Shown: piece by piece, positions 16,334 to 16,517 of the stretch
How positions within the stretch are numbered: position 1 is the first letter of the stretch
Layout of the letters: each line of letters starts with the position of its first letter
Source of the DNA: Escherichia coli
GTDB lineage: Bacteria; Pseudomonadota; Gammaproteobacteria; Enterobacterales; Enterobacteriaceae
Reading direction: 5' to 3' (one strand)
DNA: 64,000 nt
Assembly (NCBI RefSeq): GCF_030384885.1
Contig: NZ_CP128613.1
Program-made: the position numbers and the translations under genes
The notes under the pieces: model-generated
Told to the model about the DNA's origin: nothing
Databases searched by the model: none
What the model saw: only the letters and a program-made list of their open reading frames with translations

Positions 16334-16517
16334 GCCGGATGCGACGCTTGCCGCGTCTTATCCGGCCTACGGGATTGCACATGTAGGGCGGATAAGGCGT
16401 TTACGCTGCATCCGCCAGTGGCGCGGTGCAATTGCCGGATGCGACGCTTGCCGCGTCTGATCCGGCCTTCGGGATTGCACATGTAGGGCGGATAAGATGT
16501 TCACGCCGCATCCGCCA
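16334..16517. repeat. BIME: two ~84-bp near-identical direct repeats, each containing a pair of REP palindromes, between eutG and eutH
   Basis: gccggatgcgacgcttgccgcgtct(t/g)atccggcc...gtagggcggataag...gcatccgcca occurs twice (16334-16417 and 16434-16517). Confidence 0.85.

Follow-up and report, generated by a model that had tools for sequence, protein, structure and literature searches.

BIME-2 elements consist of z2 and y palindromes that are repeated in tandem several times and joined by short linkers, and their copy number differs between E. coli strains (Ton-Hoang et al., PMC3333891). BIMEs are substrates for cleavage and recombination by TnpA-REP in vitro (PMC3333891) and have been credited with an "exceptional length polymorphism" (Nunvar et al., PMC2817692). 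Besides, BIME-2 is bound and cleaved by DNA gyrase (PMC2817692). REP325 is a six-unit array between yjdM and yjdN, the Y-l-Z2 unit of which is naRNA4, an RNA reported to bind HU and condense DNA (PMC4550694). In E. coli K-12 MG1655, an array of the class "Tandem" named REP178 is listed at 2568322-2568140 between eutG and eutH (bioRxiv 10.64898/2026.03.23.713779 supplement).

Effects on mRNA stability and polarity have been reported for REP and BIME elements in general (REP325 work; PMC3333891; PMC12306157). As cited in PMC12306157, malE-malF is the paradigm of REPs inside operons that stabilize the upstream mRNA (Newbury et al. 1987), and a REP that follows a stop codon by no more than 15 nt causes ribosome stalling, so that less protein is made from the gene before it (Liang, Rudd and Deutscher 2015, as described there). 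REP325 protects the mRNA of yjdM, which precedes it, and acts as a partial terminator ahead of yjdN (2026 preprint). Across the genome, mRNA half-lives are not uniformly longer with REPs, the effects of which are reportedly highly context-dependent (2026 preprint).

Architecture and identity of the array

We analyzed a repeat array located between eutG and eutH in a 64-kb stretch of E. coli DNA, the whole of which is referred to as the window. The flanking open reading frames were named from the annotation of the closest complete genome, E. coli 2013C-4282 (eutE-eutJ-eutG-eutH-eutA-eutB), which supports the placement of the repeats by the initial annotation in the eutG-eutH spacer within the eut operon. 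That annotation had also described two near-identical units, each a pair of REPs. Indeed, a repeat search gave two direct repeats of 88 nt (16330-16417 and 16430-16517) with 92% identity and a spacing of 100 nt, and Tandem Repeats Finder reported a period of 100, 1.9 copies, 92% matches, and zero indels over 16333-16517. Both units hold a pair of imperfect palindromes that face in opposite directions, 16334-16366 with 16387-16416 in unit 1 and 16434-16466 with 16487-16516 in unit 2. The two REP core patterns had exactly 2 matches each over the 64 kb, far above chance, as the expectation calculated from 100 shuffles was 0.00. The features of the locus are as follows.

15144-16331, + strand: eutG CDS, TAA stop at 16329-16331 (open reading frame list and annotation of the near-identical locus)
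16334-16370, + strand: REP 1, hairpin 16334-16366 and CTAC tail 16367-16370; -22.8 kcal/mol
16371-16382, + strand: tail-to-tail linker of unit 1, GGGATTGCACAT, 12 nt (sequence and alignment of 28 units)
16383-16416, + strand: REP 2, GTAG foot 16383-16386 and hairpin 16387-16416; -19.3 kcal/mol
16386-16467, + strand: head-to-head junction (REP 2, linker, and REP 3), matched by Rfam naRNA4, RF02564
16417-16433, + strand: head-to-head linker between the units, AGTGGCGCGGTGCAATT (sequence)
16434-16470, + strand: REP 3, hairpin 16434-16466, with the CTAC tail changed to CTTC at 16467-16470; -22.3 kcal/mol
16471-16482, + strand: tail-to-tail linker of unit 2, GGGATTGCACAT (sequence)
16483-16516, + strand: REP 4, GTAG foot and hairpin 16487-16516; -12.0 kcal/mol, z -1.6
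16517-16547, + strand: eutH leader, A-rich and unstructured, Shine-Dalgarno sequence GGGAG at 16535-16539
16548-17774, + strand: eutH, interrupted by a nonsense codon; this lesion is separate from the BIME

The BIME fills the 216-bp spacer, starting 2 nt past the eutG stop and ending 31 nt before the eutH start codon, and is thereby extragenic, as REPs are. Linkers are short, i.e., 12 nt tail-to-tail within a unit and approximately 16 nt head-to-head between units. The four palindromes measure 30 to 33 nt and have unpaired positions in their stems, in line with the REP palindrome of 20 to 40 nt that forms a hairpin with an internal mismatch. The foot tetranucleotide typical of REPs (GTAG/CTAC; PMC3333891) was found as CTAC at 16367-16370 and as GTAG at 16383-16386 and 16483-16486; the foot of REP 3 is CTTC, one base off CTAC, a change that is present in other strains too. 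As expected of a dispersed element, the median number of sites matched by the query was 5 per E. coli genome. Unit 1 and unit 2 differ at 7 of 88 positions (unit-1 sites 16332, 16359, 16369, 16397, 16398, 16402, and 16407), and the hairpin of REP 4 has been weakened in the lineage of the window by a change of AAGGCG to AAGATG.

Comparison with K-12 indicated that the array is already known. The REP178 coordinates 2568140-2568322 do fall in the eutG-eutH spacer of MG1655, which is bounded by the stop of eutG (2568324) and the start of eutH (2568107) and is likewise 216 bp long. The flanking genes and the position are the same, the sequences are homologous, and the two arrays agree in a unit-by-unit alignment, with two 100-bp units and equal distances to the eutG stop and the eutH start. 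A 451-bp stretch was approximately 96% identical to K-12-derived strains. The differences are a few point changes: both K-12 units have ATCCAGCC, whereas in the window unit 2 has CTGAT and CTTC and the last hairpin has AAGATG.

The array also resembles REP325, since both consist of alternating inverted palindromes of two types in tandem units with a 100-bp period between co-oriented genes. The two could be aligned in register with 77% identity. REP 1 aligned with the longer REP325 palindrome (inner stem GACGC/GCGTC) and REP 2 with the shorter one (inner stem GGCG/CGCC). The outer stems differ by paired changes, GCCGGAT/ATCCGGC in eut against GCCTGAT/ATCAGGC in REP325 and GGCGGAT/ATCCGCC in eut against GCCGGAT/ATCCGGC in REP325. 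Besides, REP325 has six units as opposed to two in the window, and both linkers differ in sequence. The Rfam naRNA4 model (RF02564) matched 16386-16467 on the + strand over its full length (model positions 1-77 of 77) with 70.1 bits against a gathering score of 59.5, and the orthologous K-12 segment scored 71.8 bits. The match spans the head-to-head junction, which is present only with at least two units, and the number of matches per eut array is therefore the number of units minus one: 0 in one-unit arrays, 1 in K-12 and the window, 2 in three-unit arrays, and 4 in five-unit arrays. Scores in eut arrays were 70 to 80 bits, in comparison with 95 to 111 bits for REP325 units.

Taken as a whole, the features of the eut array all appear to fit the published descriptions of BIME-2 and of BIMEs, including tandem copies with short linkers, 2 here and 1, 2, 3, or 5 in other E. 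coli strains. The class was assigned provisionally from the alternating orientation, the naRNA4 match, and the REP325 alignment; as the outer stems differ from those of REP325, the label "atypical BIME" may apply instead. We conclude, with a probability of about 0.93, that the array is the counterpart of K-12 REP178, a BIME-2-type, RAYT-associated element of two tandem 100-bp units with a copy number that is polymorphic within the species. The finding is thus real but ordinary, because K-12 annotation already includes the element under the name REP178 and strains differ in how many copies they have. It carries little weight as a discovery, being a catalogued repeat with an architecture and a copy-number variability that are textbook properties of BIMEs.

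Variation of the spacer within and beyond E. coli

The initial annotation implied that the duplication was peculiar to the strain. This did not hold, as the 216-bp two-unit spacer occurs in K-12 MG1655 as well as in an ST131 O25:H4 strain. We searched 5,426 complete E. coli genomes, a collection biased towards clinical lineages, and estimated class frequencies from rows sampled at regular steps down three rankings, 100 rows in total; the replacement allele described below was the only class counted exactly. By these estimates, approximately 37% of the 5,426 genomes have two units, 33% have one unit, 16% have three or more (to five), and 6% have the decayed unit of O157:H7. Spacers of 116, 216, 316, and 516 bp contain 1, 2, 3, and 5 units, respectively, as exemplified by isolate 2-101 (116 bp, one unit), NT1W22 (316 bp, three units), and FAH, CB209, and 382634_2f (515 to 516 bp, five units). 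The A-rich eutH leader is kept in all Escherichia alleles, irrespective of unit number.

Two alleles depart from this 100-bp ladder. In O157:H7 NE1127, the spacer (333-431 of the extracted locus) is 99 bp long and contains only one unit, from which 17 bp are missing, among them the 5' arm of the first REP, and which has acquired further point changes; the first hairpin is thus destroyed in this lineage. In P31_YH1_02.21, the spacer (333-501 of the extracted locus) is 169 bp long, and the BIME is replaced by another dispersed repeat of approximately 138 bp with the arms GGGTGAGGG...CCCTCACCC. This replacement allele was found in exactly 306 of the 5,426 genomes, and a query carrying the repeat had a median of 7 matching sites per genome. 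Neither this allele nor that of O157:H7 matched any family in an Rfam scan. We presume that the replacement repeat resembles the "Box C" repeat.

The arrays carry traces of both age and homogenization. The unit-2 diagnostic bases CTGATCCGGCCTTCGG of the window are shared with the single unit of isolate 2-101, and CTTCGG occurs in the eutH-proximal unit of the window, 2-101, ST131, NT1W22, and FAH. Because such unit-specific polymorphisms are common to different strains, the duplication is old, and with 7 differences among 88 positions the units in the window likewise do not stem from a recent duplication. Some arrays are internally homogenized: each of the two K-12 units has ATCCAGCC, each of the five CB209 units has CTACAGG, and the three internal units of FAH have CCGACGG. 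These patterns show that the array expands, contracts, and homogenizes within lineages. As a RAYT (TnpA-REP)-associated nonautonomous repeat, it would gain and lose units by recombination between units or by the action of the transposase, which would result in a copy-number polymorphism with a 100-bp period within the species.

According to the initial annotation, an identical arrangement in all relatives would make the array an ordinary conserved BIME. Many relatives, though not all, proved to share the identical arrangement, since the number of units ranges from 1 to 5; such variability has itself been documented for BIMEs (PMC3333891). Of the two relatives that it had proposed for comparison, K-12 has the same 216-bp two-unit layout, and Salmonella enterica subsp. 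diarizonae has a 67-bp spacer with a single REP, likewise starting 2 nt past the stop codon.

The latter spacer was among those extracted after scanning one genome per species for EutH relatives. The shortest, in several Citrobacter species, is 27 bp long and is essentially a ribosome-binding site. Spacers of 32 to 48 bp were found in Yokenella, a Pluralibacter MAG, Hafnia, Entomohabitans, Morganella, Buttiauxella, and Pluralibacter gergoviae. Citrobacter sedlakii has a 60-bp spacer with a single REP, and a single E. coli-type unit is present in E. whittamii. The REP pairs in Klebsiella and other Citrobacter species are unrelated and belong to types of their own. Long arrays of roughly three to six units are present in Escherichia sp. 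E1V33 (315 bp), Escherichia sp. MOD1-EC7003 (474 bp), and SCPM-O-B-8794 (578 bp), the last of which is labelled E. coli but is divergent in eutG. Across the Enterobacteriaceae, the eutG-eutH spacer has thus been colonized repeatedly by different repeats, and the eut operon as such can dispense with them.

In the arrays of SCPM-O-B-8794 and MOD1-EC7003, the REP at the beginning is truncated. The second hairpin of most of their units shows a paired change specific to the lineage (GGGTGGAT...ATCCACC in MOD1-EC7003), an example of concerted evolution within an array.

Predicted structure and possible roles in eut expression

RNA folding predicted three strong hairpins of -19 to -23 kcal/mol (z -3.7 to -5.0) and a weak fourth one of -12 kcal/mol; the whole spacer was predicted to fold with -102.8 kcal/mol (z -3.7). 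In an alignment of 28 distinct units, 97% of the stem cells were paired, and compensatory changes occurred at two pairs. This is compatible with maintenance of the hairpins, although the covariation is weak support because the units average 96% identity and share common descent.

The possible influence on mRNA stability or polarity that the initial annotation raised agrees with the general reports on REP and BIME elements. In the most likely reading, which rests on analogy with other REPs, the array is a RAYT-associated repeat that would be transcribed within the polycistronic eut mRNA and should fold there into four hairpins. These hairpins may block 3'-to-5' exonucleases and in this way stabilize the upstream eutS-G message, as in malE-malF, where intercistronic hairpins also lie in a polycistronic operon at the position expected for a 3'-exonuclease barrier. 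They may also weakly attenuate read-through into eutH-R; the combination of exonuclease barrier and weak attenuator is modelled on REP325. Furthermore, the eutG stop ends at 16331 and the stem of the first hairpin begins at 16334, i.e., within the range of less than 16 nt past the stop that is characteristic of translation-regulating REPs. Because the first hairpin begins only 2 nt past the stop, terminating ribosomes may be stalled there and the translation of EutG may drop, by analogy with the REPs of Liang et al., with which the eut array shares a REP inside the 15-nt limit.

Any effect on eut expression is probably modest at most and context-dependent. Relatives do without repeats at this site or have one, several, or different ones, so that the effect would be nonessential; a modest effect is also what the Rho results and antisense Rho peaks described below, the context dependence of REPs, and the nonreproduction of the naRNA4 phenotype lead us to expect. 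The baseMean values of 49.8 for eutG and 92.7 for eutH (2026 preprint tables) come from different comparisons under uninduced conditions and are not taken as evidence here.

The array might instead serve as a DNA-level site, with any RNA effects incidental. As BIME-2 binds DNA gyrase, a putative gyrase site in the spacer could relieve transcription-driven supercoiling in the long eut operon. However, alleles without a REP in Citrobacter and alleles with a non-REP repeat in 306 E. coli genomes show that such a site is not required, and we regard this function as a minor possibility.

The preferred reading, a set of mRNA hairpins of modest effect, could be extended to a quantitative role. The products of eutS-G are mainly shell proteins and enzymes of the downstream pathway, and those of eutH-R are the permease, the lyase, and the regulator. 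It is conceivable, though unlikely, that the number of BIME units acts as a heritable dial that sets the ratio of eutS-G to eutH-R products and possibly, via ribosome stalling at the stop codon, the output of EutG. If this were the case, E. coli lineages would differ in gut ethanolamine use without any change in a protein or promoter. The natural alleles (27 bp without REP in Citrobacter; 1, 2, 3, and 5 units in E. coli) are ready material for studies of REP dosage.

A stronger version of attenuation would make the spacer a transcription terminator, either intrinsic or strongly Rho-dependent, that splits eut into eutS-G and eutH-R. Some REPs are indeed partial Rho-dependent terminators, and the spacer leaves an untranslated gap of 216 nt. 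On the other hand, no G+C-rich hairpin followed by a T-run was found in 16332-16547, and terminator-like matches were confined to the inside of eutH, where their number equaled that of shuffled sequence. Besides, G exceeds C on the sense strand of the spacer (68 to 58), and pieces of two to four hairpins lacked detectable Rho dependence in the REP325 study. In vitro Rho-binding peaks have been mapped at or near REP178 (MG1655 2568056-2568201 and 2568390-2568551, + strand; bioRxiv 10.64898/2026.03.23.713779 supplement), but they are antisense to eutG and eutH, which hints at suppression of antisense transcription rather than attenuation in the sense direction. The genes eutA, eutB, and eutC lie downstream of the spacer as well. 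In the 17-gene eut operon they encode ethanolamine ammonia-lyase and its reactivase, and since these products are needed, the pathway requires read-through past the spacer. A terminator of this kind is therefore improbable.

The full-length match to RF02564 above the gathering score, with an even slightly higher score in K-12, might be taken as evidence that the spacer encodes a naRNA4-like small RNA of the nucleoid, which would bind HU and help condense the chromosome. We consider this very improbable. The match scored well below the REP325 units, and the promoter scan gave no sigma-70-type promoter-like site in the spacer. Moreover, the matching segment is wholly absent from the one-unit alleles, which make up about one-third of E. 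coli genomes. In addition, REP325/naRNA4 showed no measurable nucleoid compaction in a 2026 preprint that has the senior author of the original report among its co-authors.

The eutH nonsense mutation and other features of the window

The initial annotation was right that eutH, downstream of the array, is broken. An in-frame TGA at 17436-17438 interrupts the gene, as a result of a TGG-to-TGA change at base 17437 (W297*). Its implied tie between the repeats and the broken gene was contradicted by the position and nature of the lesion, a single base change that lies 920 bp downstream of the repeats. The locus of 2013C-4282 differs from the window at only 2 of 6,451 positions, both of which are in eutH (W297* at 17437 and G173S at 17064); its spacer is 100% identical to that of the window, and its eutH is intact. 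The window eutH allele was absent from the complete E. coli genomes searched, in which the best match was 99.7%. With a point mutation 920 bp away and an identical spacer beside an intact eutH, the repeats are unrelated to the lesion.

It is true that the repeats stand directly upstream of a eutH with a premature stop and that the fourth hairpin is weakened in the lineage of the window, but a recent strain-specific tandem duplication tied to eutH inactivation, through polarity or decay of the eut operon, is hardly tenable and was rejected in view of the identical spacer beside intact eutH in 2013C-4282, the same two-unit spacer beside intact eutH in K-12 and ST131, the age of the copies indicated by their 7 differences and by the bases that unit 2 shares with 2-101, and the distant point mutation that accounts for the lesion. 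The useful results are accordingly negative or descriptive, namely, that the array has no tie to the eutH nonsense mutation, that it is also present in K-12, and that the spacer has been colonized repeatedly.

Further along the window, eutA (17771-19174) is followed directly by eutB (19186-20547). The strain is therefore without the cryptic prophage CPZ-55, which adjoins eutA in K-12 MG1655. Another REP (GTAGGCCGGATAAG...) is located at 41885-41920. At 59098-59650 and 62349-62536 there are tRNA genes, four of them clustered on the - strand beside a match to RtT RNA (51.6 bits against a gathering score of 45) and two on the + strand.
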